A stretch of 64,000 nucleotides of DNA from an uncultured Candidatus Saccharibacteria bacterium. Its GTDB lineage: Bacteria > Patescibacteriota > Minisyncoccia > Phycocordibacterales > UBA12445. The stretch lies in the NCBI GenBank assembly GCA_964649715.1, contig CAZYTH010000006.1, forward strand, positions 6,341 to 70,340. The letters are read 5' to 3'. A program made the translations under genes and the position numbers. The notes beneath the pieces were generated by a model. It saw only the letters and a program-made list of their open reading frames with translations. It was not told the DNA's origin and did not search any database. Position 1 is the stretch's first letter. Every line of letters begins with the position of its first letter. Positions 2,736 to 31,748 of the stretch are shown here, in pieces.

Positions 2736-3848
2736 ATGAATATACCAACGGTAGCTGAGTTTGGCGATTTGAGAAAAAAGACGATTCTTTTGCGTCTTGA
2801 TTTGAATGTTCCTATAAGGGAGGGAGTCATTGAGAACAATTATAGGATAGACCGTTCTTTAAAAACAATCGATTTTTTGAAAAAATCAGGAGCCAGAACT
2901 GTGATCATTAGCCATATCGGTTCTGACAATTCTGAAAGTCTTTCTGTTGTGGCCAAGTATTTAAAAGTTCCTCTTTATCCTTTGGTAATTGATGATTATC
3001 TGAAGGGGGTGGTTAGGGGGATGGGTGATGGTGAGGTTATTATGTTAGAAAATTTAAGAAAAAATGACGGGGAAAAAAATAACGATGATGATTTTGCAAA
3101 AAAACTTTCTGGATTAGCTGACATTTATGTGAACGAGGCTTTTTCTGTTTCTCATAGAGAGCATGCATCAATTGTTGGCTTACCGAAATACCTTCCTTCT
3201 TTTTTTGGTTTTTTGTTTAAAGAAGAGATAGAAAATTTATCTCTGGCTCTTGAGCCAGAGCATCCTTTTGTTTTGGTTTTGGGTGGTGCGAAATTTAGTA
3301 CGAAATTACCACTTATTAAAAAATTTTTGAAAATTGCTGACAAGATATTTATAGGAGGTGCTCTTGCAAATAGTTTTTTAAAAGAGATGGGATATGAAAC
3401 AGGAAAATCTTCTGTTGACGAAAAGGAATTTGGGTTAAAGAATCTTATGGAACAAAAAAATATTTTTATACCGCAAGACGTTGTTGTAGACACTCTTGGT
3501 AGTGTTCGTGTAAAAGATATCGATTTGATAGATAAGGAAGATATCATAATGGATATCGGACCTGGATTCTCTAAAAAAATAGAGGATGCCGTCATTGGTT
3601 CTAGATTTATTTTATGGAATGGACCTCTCGGTTTTTTTGAAAAAGGTTTTTGCGAATCGACCAAGGGTCTTGCTATTGCAATTTCCAAAAATGAAATAAA
3701 GAGCATTATTGGAGGAGGAGACACAATATCGGCCGTGCAACAACTTAAGATATCTGATAGATTTACTTTTATATCTTCGGGTGGTGGGGCGATGATACAA
3801 TTTCTTGCAAACGGAAGTCTTCCTGGGATAGATGCTATCGTGGGATGA
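2736..3848 (+). CDS. pgk: Phosphoglycerate kinase
   Basis: 370 aa. N-terminal 'KKTILLRLDLNVP...NNYRIDRSLKTIDFL..GARTVIISHIG' matches the PGK substrate-binding signature. Overall two-domain length is typical. Confidence 0.85.
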   Translation: MNIPTVAEFGDLRKKTILLRLDLNVPIREGVIENNYRIDRSLKTIDFLKKSGARTVIISHIGSDNSESLSVVAKYLKVPLYPLVIDDYLKGVVRGMGDGEVIMLENLRKNDGEKNNDDDFAKKLSGLADIYVNEAFSVSHREHASIVGLPKYLPSFFGFLFKEEIENLSLALEPEHPFVLVLGGAKFSTKLPLIKKFLKIADKIFIGGALANSFLKEMGYETGKSSVDEKEFGLKNLMEQKNIFIPQDVVVDTLGSVRVKDIDLIDKEDIIMDIGPGFSKKIEDAVIGSRFILWNGPLGFFEKGFCESTKGLAIAISKNEIKSIIGGGDTISAVQQLKISDRFTFISSGGGAMIQFLANGSLPGIDAIVG

Positions 3849-5785: not shown

Positions 5786-6085
5786 TTGGTTAAATTTAAA
5801 TCAGGACATTTTTCGGTTCAAGATTTTCCTAAAGATAAAATTGGTGACTATCCGATAGAGATACTATATAAGATATATCGGTACGCTTATAAATGGGCAA
5901 CGCTTATTGAGGAAAGGATGAGAATTGGTTTAAAATTAAGTTCAGTTGCGGAAGAAACTCATTATGAGTCAAACACAGAAGGTCTAACTTATATAATGAG
6001 AGAAAAGGCAATTCTTATTCTTGAAGAAGTTTGGTTTTACGGTCCTGAACTTCGTAGATGGTATGAGTTGCAAAAAGATAGGTGA
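5786..6085 (+). CDS. Hypothetical protein
   Basis: 99-aa ORF preceded by AAGGAGG (5770-5776). No recognisable motifs. Confidence 0.4.
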   Translation: MVKFKSGHFSVQDFPKDKIGDYPIEILYKIYRYAYKWATLIEERMRIGLKLSSVAEETHYESNTEGLTYIMREKAILILEEVWFYGPELRRWYELQKDR

Positions 6086-7727: not shown

Positions 7728-8696
7728 ATGTCAAAAATAAGGGAATCGATTGTTCTTGTTGGTGGTGGAGGTGGTGTTTACCGTGTTGCTAAATTTTTAA
7801 AGTACATACGCCCCAACATCACTACAATTCAAACTACTTTTGATCATGGTGGTCATTCAGGATCTTTGAGGGACGAAAGAGGTATTTTGCCACCCGGAGA
7901 CATAAGACAAGCGATTCTTGCTCTTTCTGACGATCGTATTGCTCCAAGTTTACGTGCGCTTCTTTCTTATCGTTTCGTTCCCAAGAATGGCTCTAGTCTA
8001 GATTCTGCGACAGTCGGTAATATCTTGCTTACTGCTTTAGCTGAAATAAACGGCGGAAATATGGTTATTGCTATAAATACTCTTTGCGAGTGGTTTCGTG
8101 TGAAAGGCAAGGTTCTTCCTGTTAGTCTTAACAATGCAGAGCTTTGCGTTAAACTTTCAAATGGGTTAATCGTTAGAGGAGAGGGTTTGATAGACAAAAG
8201 AGAGGCTTCTGATGATAGTTTCATTGTTTCGGCTTTTTTGGAGCCAGAAGCACATCTTTACTCTGAAGCTTACTCTTCGATTGTCGATGCTGACAAAATA
8301 GTTTTTTGTCCAGGTGATCTTTTTACTTCAATTATCCCGAATACGCTTGTTTGTGGTTTCAAGGAAGCCATAAAAGAGAGCAAGGCAAAGATAATCTTTG
8401 TTACAAATATAATGACCAAAAGATCAGAAACTAATAATTTTACCGCTTCAAGGTTTTGCAAGACACTGCTTCAGCATATAGGACGAGATTTTTTTGATGT
8501 CGTTGTTTGTAATAATGGTAAGATAAGCGATTTTTTGAGAGATTCTTATAAAAAAGAATTTGCTCGAATGGTTAAGGTTGATCACGATTCTCTCCTTAAA
8601 TATACAAAGCAAATCATTGCAACTTCTTTGGTTGATGAAACTGGAGGAATTGTTCGGCACAGCGAGAGGATTGCCTCTGTTGTCGCAAGCCTATAA
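7728..8696 (+). CDS. YvcK/CofD family protein (UPF0052; gluconeogenesis factor or 2-phospho-L-lactate transferase-like)
   Basis: 'IVLVGGGGGVYRVAKFL...TTFDHGGHSGSLRDERGILPPGDIRQAILALSDD' matches the family signature. RBS GGGAGG before the ATG at 7728. Confidence 0.7.
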   Translation: MSKIRESIVLVGGGGGVYRVAKFLKYIRPNITTIQTTFDHGGHSGSLRDERGILPPGDIRQAILALSDDRIAPSLRALLSYRFVPKNGSSLDSATVGNILLTALAEINGGNMVIAINTLCEWFRVKGKVLPVSLNNAELCVKLSNGLIVRGEGLIDKREASDDSFIVSAFLEPEAHLYSEAYSSIVDADKIVFCPGDLFTSIIPNTLVCGFKEAIKESKAKIIFVTNIMTKRSETNNFTASRFCKTLLQHIGRDFFDVVVCNNGKISDFLRDSYKKEFARMVKVDHDSLLKYTKQIIATSLVDETGGIVRHSERIASVVASL

Positions 8697-8870
8697 GACG
8701 CTTATTTTGGGCGTCTTTTTTGTTTTTTGTAATTTATCAATGTTTTAGTTTTATATTTCGGGGTGTTTCCAAGCTATTGAACCATAACGGCTTTTTTGAC
8801 TTTAATTTTACTGTATGTTATAATTAAAAGAGATTCAGTACATTAAATTTTTAAAAATAGGGGGGGAAAC

Positions 8871-16069: not shown

Positions 16070-17170
16070 TTATTTTTTTATCTTATCATATAGCTTTTTG
16101 ATTGTATTTATTTCGTTGCTATTTTTTATGTCCAGATAGGTCTGGAGATCGTTTTCTGAAAGTTGTTTTTTGAACTCTAAAAATTCTGGATCCGGTGGTG
16201 TTAATCTTGTATATAGTTTATACAAACTATTTTCTTCTGGAAGTTCGCTTTCCTTGAGTTTTCTTTTTGTTTCTTCTTTGTGTCGCATCGCCTTCCTGTC
16301 GGCTGTCCCGATCATATTGCCTCTTATTTTTCTTACTCTTGTGAAAAAGTCATCGTTTTCATTAAATTCAGCGTCTTGAAGGGCGTCCCATATTGTTGCC
16401 ATACCGACACTCGTGCCAAGCTTGAATTTGAAATCTTTTGGTATGTCGAGTTCTTTGTCTTTTAACCTTTCTTGGACGAGCCCGCTTTCAAAATCTATAA
16501 GCCCTGTTGCTTCTTTGTTGCTTTTAACTTCCTCAAAAAAACGTCTTTCTACCTCATTTCTAATCTCATTGAGATTTTTTTCATCTGAAGATAGAAGTGC
16601 TCCAAATTCATCTCCACCTTGGGTAAAGGGTATCGAATCAACCCCATTTTCTTTTAACCATTTTATTGTTTCACCATTCTGTAAAATTTCAGCAAGAATA
16701 CCAAGTCCTCTATCTCCGCTTGTATGACCGCCGAGATCGTTGAGAGCTTTTAGCCCGTTTAGGTCAAAGTTAATAATGGCAATTTTTTCCAGATCTGGTT
16801 TAGATAATTCTTTTTTTTCAAAAGCACTGCCCACTTTTTTTGCTAGTTCAAATTCTATATATTTTCGGTTGAAAAGGGGTTCTTTGAAGCATGGTCTTCT
16901 GTCTTGGTATGAGAGTTTTATAAGATTTACATCGTTTTTTACAAATTCAACAATTTCTTCTGGGGAGAATCCTTTTTCTTTCAAGAGAAGAACCCTGTTT
17001 TTCTCTTCAGTTCTAAGATTTATATCAGAACCTTCAGGCTCAGGAATAAGACTTAAAAGTTTTTCTATTTTGCTTTCGGCTTCTTCTTTTTTTCGTTTCT
17101 CTGTCTCTTCTCTTGAGGACGCCGTCTTTATTGCCTTATTTAAAATGTCGTTATCGTTATTATTTATCAT
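16070..17170 (-). CDS. GGDEF-domain diguanylate cyclase
   Basis: 'INFDLNGLKALNDLGGHTSGDRGLGILAEIL' and an exact 'FTQGGDEFGALL' GGDEF active-site motif. N-terminal charged, coiled region. Confidence 0.75.
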   Translation of the reverse strand: MINNNDNDILNKAIKTASSREETEKRKKEEAESKIEKLLSLIPEPEGSDINLRTEEKNRVLLLKEKGFSPEEIVEFVKNDVNLIKLSYQDRRPCFKEPLFNRKYIEFELAKKVGSAFEKKELSKPDLEKIAIINFDLNGLKALNDLGGHTSGDRGLGILAEILQNGETIKWLKENGVDSIPFTQGGDEFGALLSSDEKNLNEIRNEVERRFFEEVKSNKEATGLIDFESGLVQERLKDKELDIPKDFKFKLGTSVGMATIWDALQDAEFNENDDFFTRVRKIRGNMIGTADRKAMRHKEETKRKLKESELPEENSLYKLYTRLTPPDPEFLEFKKQLSENDLQTYLDIKNSNEINTIKKLYDKIKK

Positions 17171-17705
17171 GATTGTTATATTAATAAAAAAACAACTTAA
17201 TTGAAAGTTTTTTAAAATTATAGTGTTAGGGAATTTTTTAATTAAAAATCTCCTTATCTTCTTTTGTTTTTAAGAGAGACTGTGGCATTTGTTAAAAGCA
17301 ACTGTGCTATCTCCAAATATTGAACTGAAAAGACAACCCAAATCTAATTGTTCGATGAATTTGTGTCCTTGTCAGAAAACACTACCAATCGTTTAGAATA
17401 GCTTTTTTGGTCTTTGTTCCAAATACCTTCGCAAGTAATAAGATTTAGATGTGATTTGCCGCAAATACAAAAGTGTTTCCACCTCCAAAAATTACAGAAA
17501 AAAAGATTGATAAAATTACTAAAAATTTATTAACTGTTTTCATCTATTTTTTTATATTAACTATTGAAAAAACTCCTTACAGTTTACTCTTCTATTGTTG
17601 GAATGCATAATTGTCGTTTATTTTAGAGGATAAATATAAAATATGGGAAAAAATCGTGGAGAGTATAAATTTTTTATTTTCTTACTATCGTGCTAAAATA
17701 CAATA

Positions 17706-18065
17706 ATGAAAAAGAAAATAAATAAAAAAATAAAGCCAGTCGCCAATAGCGCGAATAAAAAAGCAATCAAAAAAATAAAATCGGTTGCCAAACTAACGGT
17801 AGAAAAAACAAAAGTATTCATGGAAAATACTGGTAAAAAGGTTGGCAAAGAAGCGGGAAAAATGGCAAAGGCACTTCAAAAAAGATGGGATAAAGCTGAA
17901 CCAGGAAGAGAGAAATATAAAAAAGAGGTAAAGATCGCAGCCAAAAAAGCTGGTGCAAGAGGCATGGAGTTACTAAAAAGTGGACTTAAAAATAGCATGA
18001 AAATAGGTGGCGATATCGTTGACGTTATCAAAAAAGATGTCAAAGAAATGAGTAACGAAAAATAG
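17706..18065 (+). CDS. Lysine-rich small hypothetical protein
   Basis: 119 aa, about 30% Lys. Followed by a terminator hairpin. Confidence 0.4.
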   Translation: MKKKINKKIKPVANSANKKAIKKIKSVAKLTVEKTKVFMENTGKKVGKEAGKMAKALQKRWDKAEPGREKYKKEVKIAAKKAGARGMELLKSGLKNSMKIGGDIVDVIKKDVKEMSNEK

Positions 18066-18107
18066 AGGAAATTAAATACCATTCATAATCTGATATAATA
18101 TAAGATT

Positions 18108-18136
18108 AAATCCGCTCTATAATGAGCGGATTTTTT
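18108..18136 (+). terminator. Rho-independent terminator
   Basis: AAATCCGCTCTATAATGAGCGGATTTTTTG. Confidence 0.6.
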
Positions 18137-18313
18137 GTTGTAAATAAGGCTGTAATGGTTTAATACTCATTGTTTTCTTATGAAAGAATTTCTATTTTTA
18201 GGTCATTTTTTAAGATAATAATAAAGTCCTCAGATTGTGGATAACTTAGCTTTGTTTTTCGGCTTCCTTTCGGTTATAATCAAATTGTAGCGTAAATAGA
18301 CTTTAATATATAG

Positions 18314-19891
18314 ATGTCAAATCTCACAAAAAAACAAAAACAAGTCTTTGACTTTGTAAATAATTATATTTCCGAAAACGGCATATCTCCGACCATTGAG
18401 GAGATACGAAAAAAACTAAAACTCAAAGCCGTTTCCACAATTCATGAACATATCAATTCCCTCAAAGCAAAGGGGTATCTTTCAAAGTCTGAAAATTCGG
18501 CTAGAAGTCTATTACTGAGAAAAGAAATCAAATCTATCATAGAAATTCCGATTTTAGGTAGAATCGCTGCGGGATATCCCATAGAAGCAATAGAAAATAT
18601 AGAGGATACTATCTCCATAGTTAATCCGAGCATTAAAACATCAGAAGGATATTATGCCTTGCGTGTAGTAGGAGAAAGTATGATTGATGAAGGAATTTTT
18701 GACGGAGATATTGTTGTAATAAAAAAGCAGTCTGTTGCAGAGAATGGGCAGACGGTTGTTGCTATTATTGATGACAACGAAGCAACACTCAAAAAATTAT
18801 ACCGAGAGAAAACACGGTACCGACTTGAACCAAGAAATCAAAATCTACTTCCTCTTTATCGCAAAGAGGTTGAGGTAAGAGGTGTTGTTGTTCAAATTAT
18901 AAGCAATATAGCAGACAGGCCAGAAAAAATATTCTCAAAAAAGACAAAACACGGATTTAAGACAATTGATCTTTTTGCTGGGGTTGGTGGAATACGATTA
19001 GGTTTTGAAAATGCCGGATTTAAAACAGTTTTCGCAAATGATTTTGAGCCTCAATGTAAAGATACCTATGATCTAAACTTTAGAGATTCGAAATTGGTTG
19101 TTGAGGATATTAGAAAGATTGGGATTGATGATTTACCTAAATTTGATTTTCTTCTGGGCGGTTTCCCTTGCCAGGCTTTTTCTATCGCAGGATATAGACA
19201 AGGATTTGATGACGAGAAAGGTAGAGGAAATTTATTTTTTGATATTGCAAGGATTCTTGACGCACGAAAGCCCGAAGGCTTTCTGCTTGAGAATGTAAAA
19301 AACTTAAAAAGTCACGATGGGGGTAAGACTTTCAGAATTATTCAAGAGACACTAGAAAATCTTGGCTATTATTTGAAAACAAAAGTTTTAAACAGTATGG
19401 AATACGGTAATATTCCACAAAACAGAGAACGAGTTTATGTGGTTGGTTTTAGAAATAAAGACTACTCCGATAAGTTTGAGTTTCCTAACCCAGTAAAATT
19501 AACTGTGAAAATTACTGACTTACTAGAGAAAAATGTACCCGATAAATACTACTACAACGGCAAGCCGTTGTTTGAAAAACTGAAAGATTTTATAAAAGAA
19601 GAAGGAAAAGTTTATCAATGGCGTAGGCAATATGTCCGAGAAAATAAGAGTGGTGTTTGTCCAACATTAACGGCAAATATGGGGACAGGTGGACACAATG
19701 TGCCAATTATTAAAGACAAGAAAGGTATCAGGAAATTAACTCCGCTAGAATGTGCTCGTATTCAAGGTTTTCCTACTGATTACAAAATACCAAAACTAGC
19801 CGATTCTGCTTTATATAAACAATTTGGAAATTCTGTCAGTGTTCCAGTTATTGAGGCTGTGGGAAGACAAATGATGAAAGCGATGGAATAA
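18314..19891 (+). CDS. Fusion protein: full-length LexA repressor (wHTH plus S24 peptidase) fused to a DNA (cytosine-5)-methyltransferase
   Basis: The N-terminal ~195 aa align throughout to E. coli LexA: 'KKQKQVFDFV..ISENGISPTIEEI' HTH, 'IPILGRIAAGYPIEA' Ala-Gly cleavage site, 'LRVVGESMIDEGIFDGD' Ser nucleophile, 'ATLKKL' Lys. The C-terminal ~320 aa carry C5-MTase motifs: I 'DLFAGVGGIRLGF', IV 'GGFPCQAFSIAGYRQG', VI 'ENVKNL', X 'QFGNSVSVPVIEAV'. Confidence 0.85.
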   Translation: MSNLTKKQKQVFDFVNNYISENGISPTIEEIRKKLKLKAVSTIHEHINSLKAKGYLSKSENSARSLLLRKEIKSIIEIPILGRIAAGYPIEAIENIEDTISIVNPSIKTSEGYYALRVVGESMIDEGIFDGDIVVIKKQSVAENGQTVVAIIDDNEATLKKLYREKTRYRLEPRNQNLLPLYRKEVEVRGVVVQIISNIADRPEKIFSKKTKHGFKTIDLFAGVGGIRLGFENAGFKTVFANDFEPQCKDTYDLNFRDSKLVVEDIRKIGIDDLPKFDFLLGGFPCQAFSIAGYRQGFDDEKGRGNLFFDIARILDARKPEGFLLENVKNLKSHDGGKTFRIIQETLENLGYYLKTKVLNSMEYGNIPQNRERVYVVGFRNKDYSDKFEFPNPVKLTVKITDLLEKNVPDKYYYNGKPLFEKLKDFIKEEGKVYQWRRQYVRENKSGVCPTLTANMGTGGHNVPIIKDKKGIRKLTPLECARIQGFPTDYKIPKLADSALYKQFGNSVSVPVIEAVGRQMMKAME

Positions 19892-19895
19892 ATAA

Positions 19896-20759
19896 TTATT
19901 CCATAAATTCAACAGCAATATTTTTGAGATCTTCAATGCGTGTCTTGAGATATTCTACACCAACATTTTCTTCTCTTAAATTAACATGTTTTGCAATAAA
20001 TGAAGTTGTTATCTTAAGCGCCGAGTTATTATCAATCCATTTTTTAGGGTGTAGTCGTAATTCAAGTCTTTTCTTGGCTTTATAGATTTTTGTATTTCCA
20101 TATTCATTATCAATAAAATCATCTAGAAAAACAGATTTATTAGTAGTTCTTTTTTTGTTAACCCTAACATTATTTAAGTTTTTTAAATTAAGCACTGCAC
20201 CTGTGAAATAGAAATCGGCACCCTCTATTTGAGTACCGGGTCTCAGTATAAAAAAGTAATATATCTTTTTTATCTTATAGGTCTTGTTTAATGATTCATA
20301 TTTTTCACTATAAAGTTTTATCCAACTATTCTTTATCTCTACATATTTTCCGTTTGCAAACATTGCATCCAAATGAATGCCTGGTCCTTCAAATTTTTGA
20401 CCCAGAGAAGCCTCTCCACTATCACTATTTGATACCTGTCCAGAGTTATTTAATTTAATATTGAGCATTTTGATATCAGCTCCCCATTTATCACGTTCAT
20501 TATATATATCAATTGGATAAGAACCAGCACCAACAGGCTTAACATCAAGTGATTGAGTAAACCACTGCTCTATATGCTCTTTTGGAATTTGAATAGGCAA
20601 TTGTCTTTGTCCAATTTTAGGCTCAGGTTGAGCAAATAATGACTTAATAATAAAATACTTAATTATATTTTTTGATTTATCATCTAGAAAATCCAATAAC
20701 TCCTTGCTGGACAAAGGATTAATTACATATTTATTATATTTTGGAGATACTTTTTTCAT
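19896..20759 (-). CDS. Putative restriction endonuclease (PD-(D/E)xK candidate) converging on the methyltransferase
   Basis: 287 aa, tail-to-tail with a 4-bp gap to the MTase. 'GIHLDAMFANGKYVEIKNSW' fits D-x10-E-x-K. No other recognisable family. Confidence 0.4.
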   Translation of the reverse strand: MKKVSPKYNKYVINPLSSKELLDFLDDKSKNIIKYFIIKSLFAQPEPKIGQRQLPIQIPKEHIEQWFTQSLDVKPVGAGSYPIDIYNERDKWGADIKMLNIKLNNSGQVSNSDSGEASLGQKFEGPGIHLDAMFANGKYVEIKNSWIKLYSEKYESLNKTYKIKKIYYFFILRPGTQIEGADFYFTGAVLNLKNLNNVRVNKKRTTNKSVFLDDFIDNEYGNTKIYKAKKRLELRLHPKKWIDNNSALKITTSFIAKHVNLREENVGVEYLKTRIEDLKNIAVEFME

Positions 20760-20784
20760 AAAGTATGTCTAATTATGACACAAT

Positions 20785-21085
20785 TCTCAATTTTGGCGGT
20801 GTTTTTTGGACGAAGTTCGAACGTTACACGTTCGGTAGAGGTTTCCCATCCGCCTCGGGCGGACAAGGGAGAACCTTTTCTCATCCCTCACAGAAGCCAC
20901 GCAGTTGGCTTCTGATTCCGATTTCCAATTTTGGCGGAGAGGGAGGGATTCGAACATTACATGTTCAGTACACCTTTTGGATCTTTTGTTTCGCTTCGCT
21001 CACAAAATATGCTCAAAAGGTTTTCGAACCCTCCCCGCAATGCATTTGGTATGCATTGCTTCTCCTATGCTCAAAAACTTCGTTT
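20785..21085 (+). repeat. Cluster of degenerate tRNA-Ser 3'-end fragments (att-site-like scars)
   Basis: 'CAATTTTGGCGG' occurs at 20785 and 20928. 20931-20954 'TGGCGGAGAGGGAGGGATTCGAAC' is identical to the 3' end of tRNA-Ser at 21927. After a ~68-bp interruption, 'TTCGAACCCTCCCCGCAATGCATTTGGTATGCATTGC' gives a T-arm plus variable-arm-like hairpin. 'ATGCTCAAAA' is repeated twice. Confidence 0.5.
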
Positions 21086-21328
21086 TTATCGCTACAGTGG
21101 TGATTGGCGGAACTTTGAACCAGTCGGTAGGGTGAGTTTCGCCAAACTTGATAAAAGTATACAGAAATTGAGGATAATTTACAGAGAAAAGCCCGAATGG
21201 TTTGAAATTCCTGATTTTACTCAAAAAACCTACTAAACATCAAAATGTTTGATGGAACTACTAATTTTTCGAACTTCCATCGCACAAAGTGATTTACGAC
21301 TATAATCCGCTACAATCGGCCACATGCA

Positions 21329-21829
21329 TTATAGCTGTATTTTTCTAAGTCCCTCAGCTAGCTTTTGAAGTTTTTCGGGATCAGCCTTTGGGCCACTCCC
21401 AGAAGAAATCCATCCTTCATATTTTTCAAACCAAAATTGTTTTCCAGATAGAAATTGTTGCCACTCCCCACGTTTTAAATTCTCAGTACCATGCAGTGGC
21501 ACAAGTTTTATGTGGGCGTGATCAATACCGGTTCCCTCCATCATTAAACCCACCCGACCAGCATCATCAAAATACTTCTCAAGAATCTGAGCCACTGTTT
21601 TTGAAGCAAGAATAAATTGCTGTAAAATATCATCTGGCATTTTTAGTACATCGCTTCCAAAATGTTTCTTTGGAATTACGCATGAGAAACCTTCGGAGTT
21701 TGGATCAATCGCCAGAAACGCCATAAACTTATCATTCTCCCAAAATATTCCCGGCGTCTTTAATCTACCTTCTGCAATTTCACAGAATGGACATTTGTTG
21801 TCTTTAGTTTTTGCTTCGTATGTTGCCAT
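21329..21829 (-). CDS. HIT (histidine triad) family hydrolase
   Basis: N-terminal 'CPFCEI', and a histidine triad 'GIDHAHIKLVPLHG'. Confidence 0.8.
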   Translation of the reverse strand: MATYEAKTKDNKCPFCEIAEGRLKTPGIFWENDKFMAFLAIDPNSEGFSCVIPKKHFGSDVLKMPDDILQQFILASKTVAQILEKYFDDAGRVGLMMEGTGIDHAHIKLVPLHGTENLKRGEWQQFLSGKQFWFEKYEGWISSGSGPKADPEKLQKLAEGLRKIQL

Positions 21830-21926
21830 AAGTTCGAATCCCTTTAGGGTTCACTCATTTTATCATTTTCTAGTCTTGAAATGTAGCGCAAAATAAGGAT
21901 ATTTCATCGCTATTTTTAAAAACCAC

Positions 21927-22016
21927 TGGCGGAGAGGGAGGGATTCGAACCCTCGGACCCCGTTAAGGGTCAGCACATTAGCAGTGTGCTGCTTTCGACC
22001 GCTCAGCCACCTCTCC
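21927..22016 (-). tRNA. tRNA-Ser (anticodon GCT), long variable arm, CCA encoded
   Basis: Reverse complement reads GGAGAGGTGGCTGAGCGG...anticodon loop CTGCTAA...long variable arm...GGTTCGAATCCCTCCCTCTCCGCCA. Confidence 0.85.
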
Positions 22017-22168
22017 ATATTATTTTATTTTAATCCCTCTAAAATTGTGGGATTCAGTTACAAACTTTTTAAGAGTATAGACTAAACTGATAACAATAAC
22101 AAGATATTTGATTTATTCTATATATATGTTATAATTAAAAAAGATTTAAAATTTAATTAACGGAGGTT

Positions 22169-22468
22169 GTGTCAATGGTTGTGCCAATCAAAAACGTTTC
22201 TGAGAAATTGCCTCGCGTTAGATTGGAAGCTTACTTTATCGTTGGTGGAACGTTTCTGAAAAAGGAGATAATGATAAATCGCCCAAATATATCAAGGCAA
22301 AATATCCTGGCGTGCCTAGAAGAAGAAAGTCAGAATATTCAACTTGACATGGAGATTGAAACTGATCAGGTGGTTCCTGTCTCCTACACAAAGGCCGTTA
22401 TTATGGAGGCCTTTCTAAGTCCGGACCTTCGGGCGGGTGATGAGGTTTTTAATCAAATCGTTAATTGA
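22169..22468 (+). CDS. Hypothetical protein
   Basis: 99-aa ORF with a GGAGG RBS. Followed by hairpin GGGGCAGGtgaaaaaCCTGTCCC (22484-22508). Confidence 0.35.
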   Translation: MSMVVPIKNVSEKLPRVRLEAYFIVGGTFLKKEIMINRPNISRQNILACLEEESQNIQLDMEIETDQVVPVSYTKAVIMEAFLSPDLRAGDEVFNQIVN

Positions 22469-22546
22469 ACAGAAGGGGTGTCGGGGCAGGTGAAAAACCT
22501 GTCCCTTTTGTGTTATAATTTTCCAATTATTAGTTTATTTTAGAAA

Positions 22547-23530
22547 ATGCTTTTATATATATATTTGATAGTTGGTTTCTTTCTTTTAATAAAAGGTGCA
22601 GATCTTCTTGTGGACGGAGCTTCTTCCCTTGCTAGAAGATTTGGTATTTCTCCACTTGTGGTTGGTTTAACTATTGTGTCTTTTGGAACATCTGCTCCAG
22701 AGCTTATTGTAAATCTCGTTGCTAGCGTTAATGGCAATGGAGACATTGCGATTGGAAACGTTATTGGAAGTAATACGGCTAACATACTTCTTATCCTTGG
22801 TTGCTCTTCCGTTGTTTATCCTTTAGCCGTTAAGTTTAGTACTGTATGGAAAGAAATACCGTTGGCGCTTCTGGCTTCTCTTCTTGTTGGTGTTATGGCA
22901 AGCGATGCACTTCTAAATTCCCCAGTTGTCTCTTCTTTGAATGGCGATATTTTTTCGGGTCTCTCTAGGATAGATGGGGTTGTTTTTCTCTCTTTCTTTA
23001 TCATCTTTATGTATTACACATTTGGTATCAGTAAAACAGAGGCGTCAGACGACGAGGAGACTACACAGGAAATATATCCCACTAAAACTAGCTTGTTTAT
23101 GATAGTGGCTGGTCTCTTTGCTCTTGTTTTGGGTGGAGATTGGGTAGTGGGCGGTGCCACAGATATTGCTAGAGATTTTGGAATAAGTGAGGCTCTTATT
23201 GGTTTGACGATGGTTGCGCTTGGTACATCTCTACCCGAGCTCGCGACTTCGGTTGTCGCTGCTTACAAAAAAGATGTTGATATTGCGGTAGGAAATGTTG
23301 TCGGATCAAATATATTCAACGTCTTTCTTGTCTTGGGAACAAGCTCTCTGGTGTCTCCTCTTAGATTTTCAGATGCGCTTCTTTGGGATACCGTCTTTTC
23401 TATGTTTGCGACACTCCTCTTGTTTTCTTTTATTTTTATAGGGAAGAAAGGGGTTATTGAGAGGAGGCAGGGCGTATTTTTTGTTTTAATATACTTTTTA
23501 TATATTGCAATCCTGTTTGTTCGAGGTTAG
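22547..23530 (+). CDS. Ca2+/Na+ antiporter (CaCA family, YrbG-like)
   Basis: Two alpha-repeat signatures, 'GTSAPEL' and 'GTSLPEL'. About 10 TM segments. 327 aa. Confidence 0.8.
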   Translation: MLLYIYLIVGFFLLIKGADLLVDGASSLARRFGISPLVVGLTIVSFGTSAPELIVNLVASVNGNGDIAIGNVIGSNTANILLILGCSSVVYPLAVKFSTVWKEIPLALLASLLVGVMASDALLNSPVVSSLNGDIFSGLSRIDGVVFLSFFIIFMYYTFGISKTEASDDEETTQEIYPTKTSLFMIVAGLFALVLGGDWVVGGATDIARDFGISEALIGLTMVALGTSLPELATSVVAAYKKDVDIAVGNVVGSNIFNVFLVLGTSSLVSPLRFSDALLWDTVFSMFATLLLFSFIFIGKKGVIERRQGVFFVLIYFLYIAILFVRG

Positions 23531-24223: not shown

Positions 24224-24380
24224 ATATAGAGATTAAAAGAATCATTCATCTCAGTAAAATAGCAAAAGGAGGGGCAAAGAAGGTTCATATTTTTTGGGTG
24301 TGGATAAGTTCCCAACATTTTATTTTATTTTTATTATCAAGATATGCTATAATAACTAATGAAGACTGTCTATTAAGAAA

Positions 24381-25499
24381 ATGAATATAAACAATTTTTT
24401 AAAAAATATCGGAATTGGAAAACAAAACAGTGTCGTTGGAGTGGACATCGGTTCTTCGTCTATTAAAGTCGTTCAATTAAAAAAAGAAAAGGGCATTGCC
24501 AAGCTAGAGACTTATGGAGAGATTGCGTTGGGTCCTTTTGGCGGAATGGCAGTCGGACAAGCGGTCTCCCTCCCTCCTGAAAAGTTGACCGAAGCGATAA
24601 AACAAGTTTTTAAAGAAGTGAATATCACTGCAACAGACGCTGTTTTTTCAGTACCCCTGCGTTCAAGTTTATTGAAATTGGTTGGGATACCCAAAGTAGA
24701 TAATGCCAGTATGGAACAAGTTATTCAGCTTGAGGCCAGAAAATACATTCCTGTTCCGATAAACGAAGTTATGCTTGATTGGATGATCATTCCGCCTCGA
24801 GAGTTTGAAACTCCTGGCGTGGCAACAGAAAAGATAGATGACGGTGACTTAAAAAAGGTTGAGAAAACTGAAGTCATTATCGTTGCGATACACAAGGCAA
24901 TAATTTCCGCTTACGATGAAATAATAAAAAAGGTTGGACTGTCAGCACAGCCTCTTGAGATTGAAACTTTCAGTGCTTCAAGGGCAGTTGTTGGAAATGA
25001 GATAAGTGCTTTGGCCATATTGGATATTGGTGCATCAACAACGAGGCTTTTGGTTTTGGATTATGGCATTGCTCGTTTATCAAGCGTTATAAATAAGGGT
25101 TCCCAAGACATTACTATTGCTCTTGAGAAATCTCTCGGACTTACTTTCGCAGAAGCAGAAGATGCAAAGAGGCGACTTGGTGCTATTGGGGCTACCGAGG
25201 GAGGCGACTTGCATACAGTTGTAAACCCTACACTTGAATACATCTTTTACGAAACGCAAAAGATGTTATTAAACTATCAGAAAAAATATTCTAGACCGAT
25301 ATCAAAAGTGATTTTAACAGGAGGTGGTTCTCTGCTTAAGGGTATTGTCGGGATAGCTAAAGAAAATCTAGAGATTGAAGTTGAATTGGGAAATGCTTTC
25401 AAAAAGATACAAGTTCCTGCGATTATGGAAAAAATACTTGCCGACAATGGTTCAGGTTTTGCGATTGCCACAGGTCTAGCCCTAAGAGGTCTTCAATAA
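24381..25499 (+). CDS. pilM: Type IV pilus assembly protein PilM (actin-like ATPase)
   Basis: 'VVGVDIGSSSIKVVQLKKEKG' phosphate-1 motif. 372 aa. First gene of the pilMNO...BTC cluster. Confidence 0.8.
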   Translation: MNINNFLKNIGIGKQNSVVGVDIGSSSIKVVQLKKEKGIAKLETYGEIALGPFGGMAVGQAVSLPPEKLTEAIKQVFKEVNITATDAVFSVPLRSSLLKLVGIPKVDNASMEQVIQLEARKYIPVPINEVMLDWMIIPPREFETPGVATEKIDDGDLKKVEKTEVIIVAIHKAIISAYDEIIKKVGLSAQPLEIETFSASRAVVGNEISALAILDIGASTTRLLVLDYGIARLSSVINKGSQDITIALEKSLGLTFAEAEDAKRRLGAIGATEGGDLHTVVNPTLEYIFYETQKMLLNYQKKYSRPISKVILTGGGSLLKGIVGIAKENLEIEVELGNAFKKIQVPAIMEKILADNGSGFAIATGLALRGLQ

Positions 25500-31600: not shown

Positions 31601-31748
31601 CCACCATTCATTTCGGACTGGTTGGAAATTTGGATTTGGAAATTACTTTCTCCTTTATCCACAGCCTCTGTTTTGCTTTTAATGTCCTCCGAGAGTATAA
31701 TTTATTATGCAAGGGAATGTTTCCTCGCTTTTGATTTATTTCGGTCGA

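Follow-up and report, generated by a model that had tools for sequence, protein, structure and literature searches.

Type II restriction-modification (R-M) systems risk cutting the chromosome of their own host, and the means of coping with the unmodified sites made by damage or repair are well worked out for Type I systems only. Indeed, a 2025 review of R-M systems describes damage-induced restriction alleviation for Type I only and nowhere mentions LexA (PMC12707154), and a 2013 review of R-M regulation mentions LexA just for toxin-antitoxin systems (PMC3874152). A form of self-control is found in the methyltransferases of the M.SsoII, M.Ecl18kI, M.EcoRII and M.MspI type, where a C5 methyltransferase has an extra N-terminal region that binds an operator in its own promoter and represses its own synthesis (PMC2760811, PMC3978073). 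Here, we analyse a stretch of 64,000 nt (referred to as the window) from an uncultured Candidatus Saccharibacteria bacterium (assembly GCA_964649715.1, contig CAZYTH010000006.1, positions 6,341 to 70,340), in which a gene encoding LexA fused to a C5-cytosine methyltransferase converges with the gene of a candidate restriction endonuclease. By analogy, this cassette most likely works like the autoregulating methyltransferases of the M.SsoII type. The full-text literature, R-M reviews included, yielded no description of a LexA-fused methyltransferase; a prior mention in the study of the SOS network of Patescibacteria by Sanchez-Osuna et al. (2017, Environ Microbiol) is possible.

The fusion gene (18314..19891, + strand) is a single unbroken open reading frame (ORF) of 525 codons, and the PADLOC model that fits it best is one for Type II methyltransferases (E 5e-127). 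Residues 1-64 (18314..18505) constitute the LexA winged-helix DNA-binding domain (Pfam LexA_DNA_bind PF01726, E 1.2e-16), with AVSTIHEHINSL as its recognition helix in the alignment to E. coli LexA, and residues 79-193 (18548..18892) constitute the S24 peptidase and dimerisation domain (Peptidase_S24 PF00717, E 1.9e-28). The predicted autocleavage site Ala86-Gly87, within RIAAGYP (codons 18569..18574), aligns with Ala84-Gly85 of E. coli LexA, the nucleophile Ser122 (18677-18679) with S119, and the general base Lys160 (18791-18793) with K156. Residues 1-199 match the NCBIfam lexA equivalog TIGR00498 over model positions 1-202 of 203, with 186.4 bits against a cut-off of 110.95, and the nearest solved structures are those of the T. 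maritima (3K2Z) and E. coli (1JHH) LexA proteins. This half is thus a complete, apparently self-cleaving LexA with its catalytic residues intact. It is followed by an interdomain linker (residues 196-214; 18899..18955), which is the least conserved segment and has the highest dN/dS, and then by the methyltransferase domain (residues 215-521; 18956..19876), which spans positions 1-323 of the 324 in Pfam DNA_methylase (PF00145, E 1.6e-92) and scores 337 bits with the NCBIfam dcm model TIGR00675. The methyltransferase motifs I (FAGVGG), IV (PCQ, with the catalytic Cys286 at 19169-19171), VI (ENV) and X occur in this order, with the target-recognition domain between VIII and IX, and the nearest solved structure is M.HhaI (E 6.5e-60, aligned over 308 residues that include FAGVGG, PCQ and ENV). 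A preliminary inspection of the letters and ORFs (hereafter, the sequence-only reading) had proposed a complete LexA, with winged helix, Ala-Gly site, Ser and Lys, that continues in frame into a Dcm-type methyltransferase with motifs I, IV, VI and X; the profile matches and the alignments to E. coli LexA and M.HhaI bear out both halves of this proposal.

The fusion is real and common and is no assembly artefact, since the same in-frame junction recurs across independent assemblies. In a collection of 5.8 billion proteins, the best 120 clusters at 90% identity, which come from NCBI, JGI, ENA and Logan assemblies, all contain the three domains in about 525 residues and are 82-96% identical to the fusion. 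In a scan at species level, where each species was represented by a single genome, 500 stretches proved to be relatives, and the best 80 of these, which serve for the locus comparisons below, show 63-95% identity, most matching over residues 1-525 and a few being cut at contig ends. Most of the 80 loci are in named Patescibacteria (Paceibacteria, Nomura-, Giovannoni-, Falkow-, Moran-, Uhr-, Staskawicz-, Kaiser-, Nealson- and Shapirobacteria), while a few labels of metagenome-assembled genomes (MAGs) name other phyla. The sequence-only reading had known of no described LexA::Dcm fusion; the same architecture is now found in at least 80 species genomes, and the phenomenon is far wider than this one type of fusion. 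The names given to the proteins by annotation pipelines are split between 'transcriptional repressor LexA' and 'DNA (cytosine-5)-methyltransferase', and this naming at random distorts reconstructions of the SOS regulon.

The residues needed for self-cleavage are under strong purifying selection. Among 81 homologues, the Ala and the Gly of the cleavage site are each conserved in 80, and the Ser and the Lys in all 81. A rough Nei-Gojobori estimate, in which synonymous sites are saturated (dS >1), gives dN/dS values of about 0.06 for the winged helix, about 0.09 for the S24 domain, 0.25 for the linker and 0.18 for the methyltransferase. Because the values for the winged helix and S24 are the lower ones, the LexA half appears to be at least as constrained as the enzyme half.

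The partner of the fusion is a 287-aa gene (19896..20759, - strand) that converges with it across the 4-bp gap already seen in the sequence-only reading (19891 against 19896). Its product has no match in Pfam, NCBIfam or PADLOC, and it belongs to a family of 545 clusters, every one of which is named hypothetical. The AlphaFold model based on the family alignment is a confident one (pLDDT 88.9, pTM 0.86) with a restriction-endonuclease-like alpha/beta core, and the residues of the PD-(D/E)xK site (P82-x-D84...D95-x-K97 and Glu116) are invariant in 36 diverse members of the family. The nuclease core suggested earlier thus stands as regards the modelled PD-(D/E)xK fold, but its motif, given as D-x10-E-x-K, is actually D84-x10-D95-x-K97. 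A homologue with 47% identity is again convergent with a LexA-S24-Dcm fusion, and we take the 287-aa protein to be the candidate restriction endonuclease of the cassette.

The ORFs that flank the fusion were clustered for the window and the 80 loci, and the flanking genes share almost nothing between loci. The gene directly 3' of the fusion, however, is almost always convergent, in most loci 2-11 bp from the stop codon, and belongs to one of eight families that have no BLAST similarity to one another. Three of these match endonuclease-type Pfam families, namely C1 (about 187 aa, 28 loci; RE_Bsp6I, E 1.6e-17), C3 (about 385 aa, 9 loci; RE_NgoFVII_C, E 3.2e-15) and C11 (about 150 aa, 6 loci; PDDEXK_5, E 2.6e-7). 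The others have no Pfam match: C2 (about 360 aa, 13 loci), C8, which is the family of the window's nuclease (about 281 aa, 7 loci), C13 (about 279 aa, 6 loci), C16 (about 320 aa, 4 loci) and C17 (about 350 aa, 4 loci). An NCBIfam search of the partner families gave no matches. Across all eight families, the target-recognition core of the methyltransferase, VYQWRRQYVRENKSGVCPTLTANMGTGGHNVPIIKDKKGI, is unchanged, and the identity between methyltransferases is 0.82 both within and between partner families. By this pattern, the methyltransferase is the constant part of the system, and the nuclease slot the part that is exchanged.

The region 18236-20759 as a whole reads as a mobile two-gene Type II R-M cassette of a Patescibacteria (Parcubacteria/Paceibacteria) genome. 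Its horizontal mobility is indicated by 85-95% identity between distant Patescibacteria lineages in the 80-locus comparison, by the varied neighbourhoods and by the presence of two copies on one contig. The latter (L018 and L029) are LexA-Dcm fusions on contig CAIRHC010000009.1, and another pair (L011 and L020) is found in one MAG; in these two-copy genomes, the partner nucleases are of different families (C1 and C13) and the target-recognition core is identical. A phage origin of the fusion was considered and rejected, as IMG/VR contains no full-length fusion and only methyltransferase-only (50-67% identity) and LexA-only (54%) homologues. In the former (L081-L088, on contigs classified as phage), the methyltransferase domain stands alone (residues about 215-525), with no LexA. 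In the latter (L089 and L090), a 199-aa LexA stands alone, has the same recognition helix as the fusion and terminates at the start of the fusion's linker; in L090, the end reads ...IIRNLK*, where the fusion reads on.

The nature of the sister nucleases bears on the target of the methyltransferase. According to the Pfam description of its family, NgoFVII has the target GCSGC. M.Bsp6I has the target GCNGC (PMC2790894). In 592 kb of flanking DNA, GCNGC is the most depleted of all palindromes of 4, 5 and 6 bp (824 observed against 1299 expected, z -13.2), and it also has the lowest ratio of observed to expected occurrences in the window (0.44). The Bsp6I and NgoFVII partner families and the palindrome depletion together make GCNGC the most likely target. 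The GCGC specificity of HhaI is disfavoured, since the alignment to M.HhaI is poor in the region of the recognition domain and the depletion of GCGC is weaker than that of GCNGC.

In many sister cassettes, a small gene of the HTH_3 (XRE-type) family lies 5-10 bp upstream of the nuclease gene (L003, L005, L009, L012, L025, L028, L045, L048, L069, L075 and others). The proteins share the C-terminus ...SKIESGQRRFDVLQLKEFAKLYKKSLDFFVK, and the nucleases beside them span families C1, C2, C11 and C3. The resulting layout (M-> <-R<-C) is the classical arrangement of controller proteins, and the small HTH_3 protein looks like a portable controller (C) protein that would travel with the swapped nuclease slot.

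The control over the fusion gene itself could be exerted at its promoter. A -35-like hexamer, TTGTTT (18252..18257, + strand), lies 17 nt upstream of the -10 hexamer TATAAT (18275..18280); the former corresponds to the conserved GCTTTG block of other loci and was missed in the consensus promoter scan, three of its six positions matching, and the latter is conserved as GGTTATAAT in most loci. The 17-nt spacer is exactly filled by a putative operator, TTCGG-N6-TTCGG (TTCGGCTTCCTTTCGGT; 18258..18274), a direct repeat with an 11-bp period, the two TTCGG units of which are thus one helical turn apart. Between the -10 hexamer and the ATG is a 33-nt 5' leader (18281..18313; consensus TGTAGCGnAAATAGATTTTnAAnGCAAT), which is conserved in the upstream alignments despite the saturation of the gene's synonymous sites (dS >1). 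Most loci share the same promoter grammar: (C)TGTGGATAAC - GCTTTG - TTTCGGnnTnnnTTCGG - TTATAAT - conserved 33-nt leader - ATG.

The exact repeat occurs once in the window. A relaxed version of the pattern is found at 62 cassette promoters (plus one inverted copy) against three sites, all within ORFs, in approximately 800 kb. Moreover, the repeat varies together with the recognition helix. Where the helix is of the form xx[IV]H[EQ]H, the promoter has TTCGG-type repeats in 63 cases, repeats of the TTTCTA/TAGAAA type in none and neither type in two; where it is of the form xxA[HY][HYF][HY], the corresponding numbers are 0, 5 and 2, the TTTCTA/TAGAAA repeats also having an 11-bp period. A third helix, PSTAHEH, is paired with CTCGGG-N5-CTCGGG repeats (L095). 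Because of the position of the repeat in the promoter, its near-exclusive occurrence there and its co-variation with the helix, the LexA domain probably represses its own promoter via the spacer repeat. Autorepression through LexA boxes had been suggested by the sequence-only reading; the autorepression fares well in the light of the own-promoter operator and of the co-variation, whereas the boxes do not, the site being an 11-bp direct repeat and not a palindromic LexA box. No such operator was found upstream of the nuclease genes in the window or the loci.

As for other LexA sites, canonical boxes near the cassette were looked for and rejected: GAAC-N4-GTTC occurs only twice in the window, both times within ORFs, and is not above chance. 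Similarly, inverted CGAAC motifs upstream of the nuclease gene turned out to be part of a degenerate tRNA fragment and not LexA boxes. CGAAC is the half-site of Gram-positive LexA boxes, and CCGAAA, which is the opposite strand of the repeat unit, resembles it.

The association of this LexA with methyltransferases extends beyond the C5 class. When the LexA half (residues 1-200) was searched by phmmer against 1.84 billion cluster representatives at 50% identity, 49 of the best 60 matches exceeded 260 residues (270-841 aa) and had LexA as their N-terminal part; below about rank 66, the matches were ordinary LexA proteins of about 200 aa with at most 46% identity. All of the 51 long relatives scanned with Pfam carry LexA_DNA_bind and Peptidase_S24, and none of them departs from the Ala-Gly, Ser and Lys of the cleavage machinery. 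Their C-terminal families, the counts of which overlap because some families match one protein jointly, are N6_N4_Mtase (29 of 51), Eco57I (7), the D12 class or Dam (5), N6_Mtase (5), MmeI_Mtase (4), the C5 DNA_methylase or Dcm (3) and TaqI_C (2). Those fusions that have a source name are from Patescibacteria or Nealsonbacteria. One of the other classes, a 615-aa LexA-Eco57I/N6 methyltransferase found on 53 contigs (L092-L094, 4001-6767), shares the layout of the cassette, a 302-aa gene that matches nothing in Pfam converging with it 10 bp past the stop codon, and its promoter follows the same grammar, with the organisation CTGTGAATAAC-TTTCGG-N5-TTTCGG-...-TATAAT-...-CTGTGGAAAAC-ATG. It sits in a stretch that resembles a defence island, with HicA, AbiEii, two NYN genes and an SNase gene. 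In L095 (1155-2671), a LexA of 222 aa and an N6_N4 methyltransferase of 286 aa are encoded by separate ORFs that share 13 bp, which is either a genuine two-gene version or a frameshifted fusion. By the comparison of these proteins, one particular lineage of LexA is used as a portable module at the N-terminus of R-M methyltransferases, whatever the class of the enzyme.

Taken together, these results lead us to read the locus as a mobile Type II R-M cassette in which the methyltransferase is autorepressed by LexA and derepressed by damage, and we put the probability of this reading at roughly 0.6. The idea of an R-M module coupled to the SOS response, advanced by the sequence-only reading, is favoured by the comparative data (mobile cassette, operator in the spacer and invariant cleavage residues), whereas DNA binding, RecA-stimulated cleavage and the way in which methylation and restriction would shift are steps that we infer. 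The LexA part would dimerise via S24, and the winged helix would bind TTCGG-N6-TTCGG, which would occlude RNA polymerase, such that the methyltransferase represses its own synthesis. In a naive host, where there is no repressor, methylation would be established first and its level would then be kept constant. In the presence of single-stranded DNA and RecA filaments, the S24 peptidase might cut at Ala86-Gly87; the trigger could be external damage, recombinational repair that makes unmodified sites, or cutting of under-methylated DNA by the cassette's own endonuclease. Cleavage would separate off the DNA-binding domain, after which the promoter would be derepressed and methyltransferase activity would rise. 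Since no + strand terminator separates the convergent genes, stronger methyltransferase transcription might also interfere with the nuclease gene and so lower restriction. The outcome would be a Type II counterpart of damage-induced restriction alleviation or, alternatively, an autoimmunity feedback loop.

The junction between the two genes is relevant to this last step. The terminator scan found no + strand terminator after the methyltransferase gene. Between the two genes there is no G+C-rich terminator but a weak AT-rich hairpin, TGGAATAA-ATAA-TTATTCCA (19884..19903), which arises because both genes end in ...ME-stop. The sole terminator-like hairpin downstream of the nuclease gene (19554-19571, - strand) is inside the methyltransferase coding region, in antisense. 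Convergent read-through in both directions seems likely.

Several points weigh against this picture of a LexA-autorepressed, damage-derepressed cassette. The specificity of the methyltransferase has been deduced, via partner families and palindrome depletion, and the window's nuclease gene has no recognisable operator or controller gene by which restriction might be timed. The co-variation between helix and operator rests on a few clades, which are phylogenetically non-independent. Characterised LexA proteins bind palindromes; as the putative operator here is a direct repeat, the geometry of binding is uncertain. No recA was found by its signature motifs in the window or in the loci; these genomes presumably do have recA. 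The AlphaFold model of the full-length fusion is poor (pLDDT 56), the alignment being shallow, and is too weak for use. Lastly, the S24-methyltransferase fragment might be unstable, like the fragments of E. coli LexA, in which case the predicted outcome would be reversed.

Such a reversal is the essence of one alternative, a suicide or addiction logic in which RecA-stimulated cleavage destabilises or inactivates the methyltransferase, restriction outruns modification during the SOS response, and the cassette acts as an abortive-infection or post-segregational-killing switch. The cell's own DNA would then be cut in the SOS settings of phage infection, prophage induction or loss of the cassette. 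The N-terminal fragment left by cleavage would end in ...RIAA and so resemble ...VAA, the terminus by which the E. coli LexA fragment is directed to ClpXP. The protein's architecture and its conserved cleavage residues agree with this logic as well as with the protective one, HicA and AbiEii are present in the same island as the LexA-Eco57I/N6 sister fusion, and R-M systems are known as addiction modules and SOS inducers (PMC3874152). However, loss of the DNA-binding domain should raise methyltransferase transcription; the cut is 128 residues N-terminal to the methyltransferase domain, from which it is separated by the folded S24 and the variable linker; and we see no sign that catalysis depends on the N-terminus. 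Moreover, killing upon any DNA damage would be costly in the at least 80 species genomes concerned. A suicide switch is, in our view, unlikely.

Another possibility is a plain autoregulator with no SOS coupling, the LexA part being a dimeric DNA-binding module comparable to the helix-turn-helix (HTH) of M.SsoII and M.EcoRII and held together by S24, with cleavage that proceeds slowly, takes place constitutively or responds to a trigger other than RecA. The evidence from the operator demands DNA binding only, neither a recA nor a host SOS box was found near the cassette, and autoregulators borne by methyltransferases are well known (PMC2760811, PMC3978073). Dimerisation, however, needs neither the Ala-Gly site nor the Ser/Lys dyad, yet these residues are invariant or changed in one of 81 sequences, in orthologues down to 63% identity, and they are also invariant in the 51 fusions to unrelated methyltransferases, with a dN/dS of about 0.09 for S24. 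A plain autoregulator uncoupled from SOS is, in our view, improbable.

It is very unlikely that the fusion is the master SOS repressor, i.e., a housekeeping lexA that has merged with a methyltransferase and either controls a damage regulon or delivers methylation to SOS operators. This would agree with the NCBI pipeline name 'transcriptional repressor LexA', with the score above the lexA equivalog cut-off and with there being no second lexA in the 64-kb window. On the other hand, the operator in the window is confined to the cassette's own promoter, and in the approximately 800 kb of related loci there are, beyond cassette promoters, just the three ORF-internal sites; no palindromic operator of the SOS-regulon type was found for the fusion in the window or these loci. 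The suggestion that the methyltransferase might be targeted to host LexA operators accordingly finds no support. Moreover, the neighbourhood differs in each genome, the partner nuclease is swapped, and the 85-95% identity across distant lineages, together with the contig with two copies, speaks for horizontal transfer. Most directly, L041 contains, two genes away from its fusion, a separate 192-aa LexA (within 2793-3810, - strand), whose identity to the LexA half of the fusion is 29%, and the promoter upstream of this lexA has a canonical GAAC-N4-GTTC palindrome between TTGACA and TATACT. Because of this separate LexA with its canonical box, and because the operator of the fusion is present almost only at cassette promoters, the fusion would appear to be a dedicated regulator, at least in L041. 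The remaining explanation, a frameshift or assembly join at the junction of lexA and dcm, as the sequence-only reading had feared, can practically be dismissed, for although L095 with its 13-bp overlap indicates that split versions or sequencing frameshifts exist, the junction is in frame in hundreds of independent NCBI, JGI, ENA and Logan assemblies of 63-96% identity, and selection operates across the linker.

The conserved cassette promoter has an exact DnaA-box consensus, TTATCCACA (18236..18244, - strand; the + strand reads TGTGGATAA), at its upstream edge. In 53 of 77 loci, the exact 9-mer occurs in the 150 bp that precede the fusion, the background frequency being 0.0046 per 150 bp. It is unchanged when the operator class switches and, in divergent cassettes, it occurs in either orientation and sometimes in two copies; further intergenic regions of the loci contain an extended form of the motif, CTGTGGATAACTT. 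Two other exact copies of TTATCCACA are present in the window (24299-24307 and 31655-31663), each about 40 bp upstream of a TATAAT, and one of them precedes an ftsA-like gene at 24381. In L041, a TTATCCACA box lies just upstream of the promoter of the separate lexA, with a small ORF between promoter and lexA. The TGTGGATAAC block was considered as an operator of the LexA domain or as a terminus of the cassette and was rejected, because changes in the recognition helix leave it unaltered and unrelated host promoters also have it. TTATCCACA may be a general promoter-proximal element in this organism, used by DnaA or another global factor, and the site at the cassette is probably that of a host factor, most simply DnaA. 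If so, expression of the methyltransferase would be tied to the initiation of replication, which we mention as a lead only.

Turning to the surroundings, a tRNA-Ser(GCT) gene lies at 21927-22016 (- strand), and the 24 nt at its 3' end (TGGCGGAGAGGGAGGGATTCGAAC) recur exactly at 20932-20955, with only a HIT-family gene (21329-21829) between this repeat and the tRNA gene. A degenerate copy of the tRNA-Ser 3' end (20788-20822) adjoins the start of the nuclease gene. These repeats look like att-type remnants of integrations at tRNA-Ser. In L036 (about 5920-6000), a tRNA-Ser 3' fragment adjoins the TGTGGATAAC box, in L057 (about 8630-8720), a whole tRNA-Ser is beside the start of the nuclease gene, and in L008, the 3' part of a tRNA is upstream of the nuclease gene. 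This adjacency suggests a preferred insertion context or hitch-hiking on elements that target tRNA genes. The tRNA-Ser was the only structured RNA found in 17000-23000. On the other side, just upstream of the cassette, are a gene for a 366-aa protein with a weak GGDEF domain (16070-17170, - strand; E 1.4e-7) and one for a 119-aa lysine-rich protein with no family match (17706-18065, + strand). A strong bidirectional terminator (18108-18133) divides these upstream genes from the cassette.

If the damage-derepressed reading of the cassette is right, a self-cleaving SOS repressor inside the methyltransferase would be a simple answer to the risk of self-restriction in Type II systems. For such systems, this would be the first instance of restriction alleviation, or of autoimmunity feedback, that is gated by damage, and it would provide a new route by which a selfish or defence element reads the damage signal of its host. 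Fusions to every major class of methyltransferase point to a general regulatory strategy, and they are frequent in Patescibacteria, the ultra-small cells of which must maintain genome methylation with few protein molecules. Tentatively, and with less confidence than in the cassette itself, one might see in the LexA-methyltransferase fusions a general control module of R-M in this group, in which a RecA/SOS signal would raise modification and, via convergent transcription, lower restriction upon damage to the chromosome or its self-restriction, with helix/operator pairs that diversify and a possible link to DnaA. The pairs might be analogous to the incompatibility groups of C proteins. They also constitute a natural set of orthogonal, damage-inducible repressors, and the cassettes supply eight candidate endonuclease families with probable GCNGC-type targets.

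How, then, does the cassette compare with the systems already described? Compared with M.SsoII-type enzymes, the fusion has a LexA of about 200 residues with an apparently self-cleaving S24 domain and not an HTH of 70 residues, its putative operator is a direct repeat with an 11-bp period that sits between -35 and -10, its R and M genes are convergent and not divergent, and its LexA module is also joined to N4/N6, Dam and gamma-class methyltransferases; the resemblance is functional and implies no family membership. The SOS repressor LexA (TIGR00498; 1JHH, 3K2Z) gives a collinear, full-length match with the winged helix, the Ala-Gly site and the Ser/Lys dyad, but the fusion bears a 330-residue C-terminal methyltransferase, its putative operator is at its own promoter and not a palindromic box at repair genes, and its LexA forms a clade separate from the host-type LexA with the GAAC-N4-GTTC box. 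The Bsp6I (GCNGC) and NgoFVII (GCSGC) systems resemble the cassette in that the endonucleases of sister cassettes are of these families, the methyltransferase is like M.HhaI and M.Bsp6I, and GCNGC is depleted; the window's endonuclease, however, is from another, unannotated PD-(D/E)xK family, and we know of no LexA domain in the classical Bsp6I and NgoFVII enzymes.

In the C-protein Type II systems (PvuII, BamHI, Esp1396I), a dedicated small factor times restriction, as the HTH gene beside the nuclease might do in the sister cassettes, whereas the window's cassette has no C gene and its methyltransferase-borne LexA would add a proteolytic, signal-responsive switch. The closest functional analogue of the damage-derepressed cassette is Type I restriction alleviation, where the chromosome is protected after damage by the proteolysis of HsdR by ClpXP (PMC12707154); in that case, a host protease acts on the restriction subunit. 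Finally, phages with CI-type S24 repressors and the toxin-antitoxin and colicin genes controlled by LexA are also mobile or selfish elements that sense damage to their host, via a RecA-sensitive repressor or via the host LexA (PMC3874152), but there the repressor is separate, whereas in the cassette it is covalently fused to the 'antitoxin' enzyme of the R-M pair. The proteins themselves are already in public databases; what would be new is an R-M system in which the autoregulator borne by the methyltransferase is a complete, signal-cleavable LexA.

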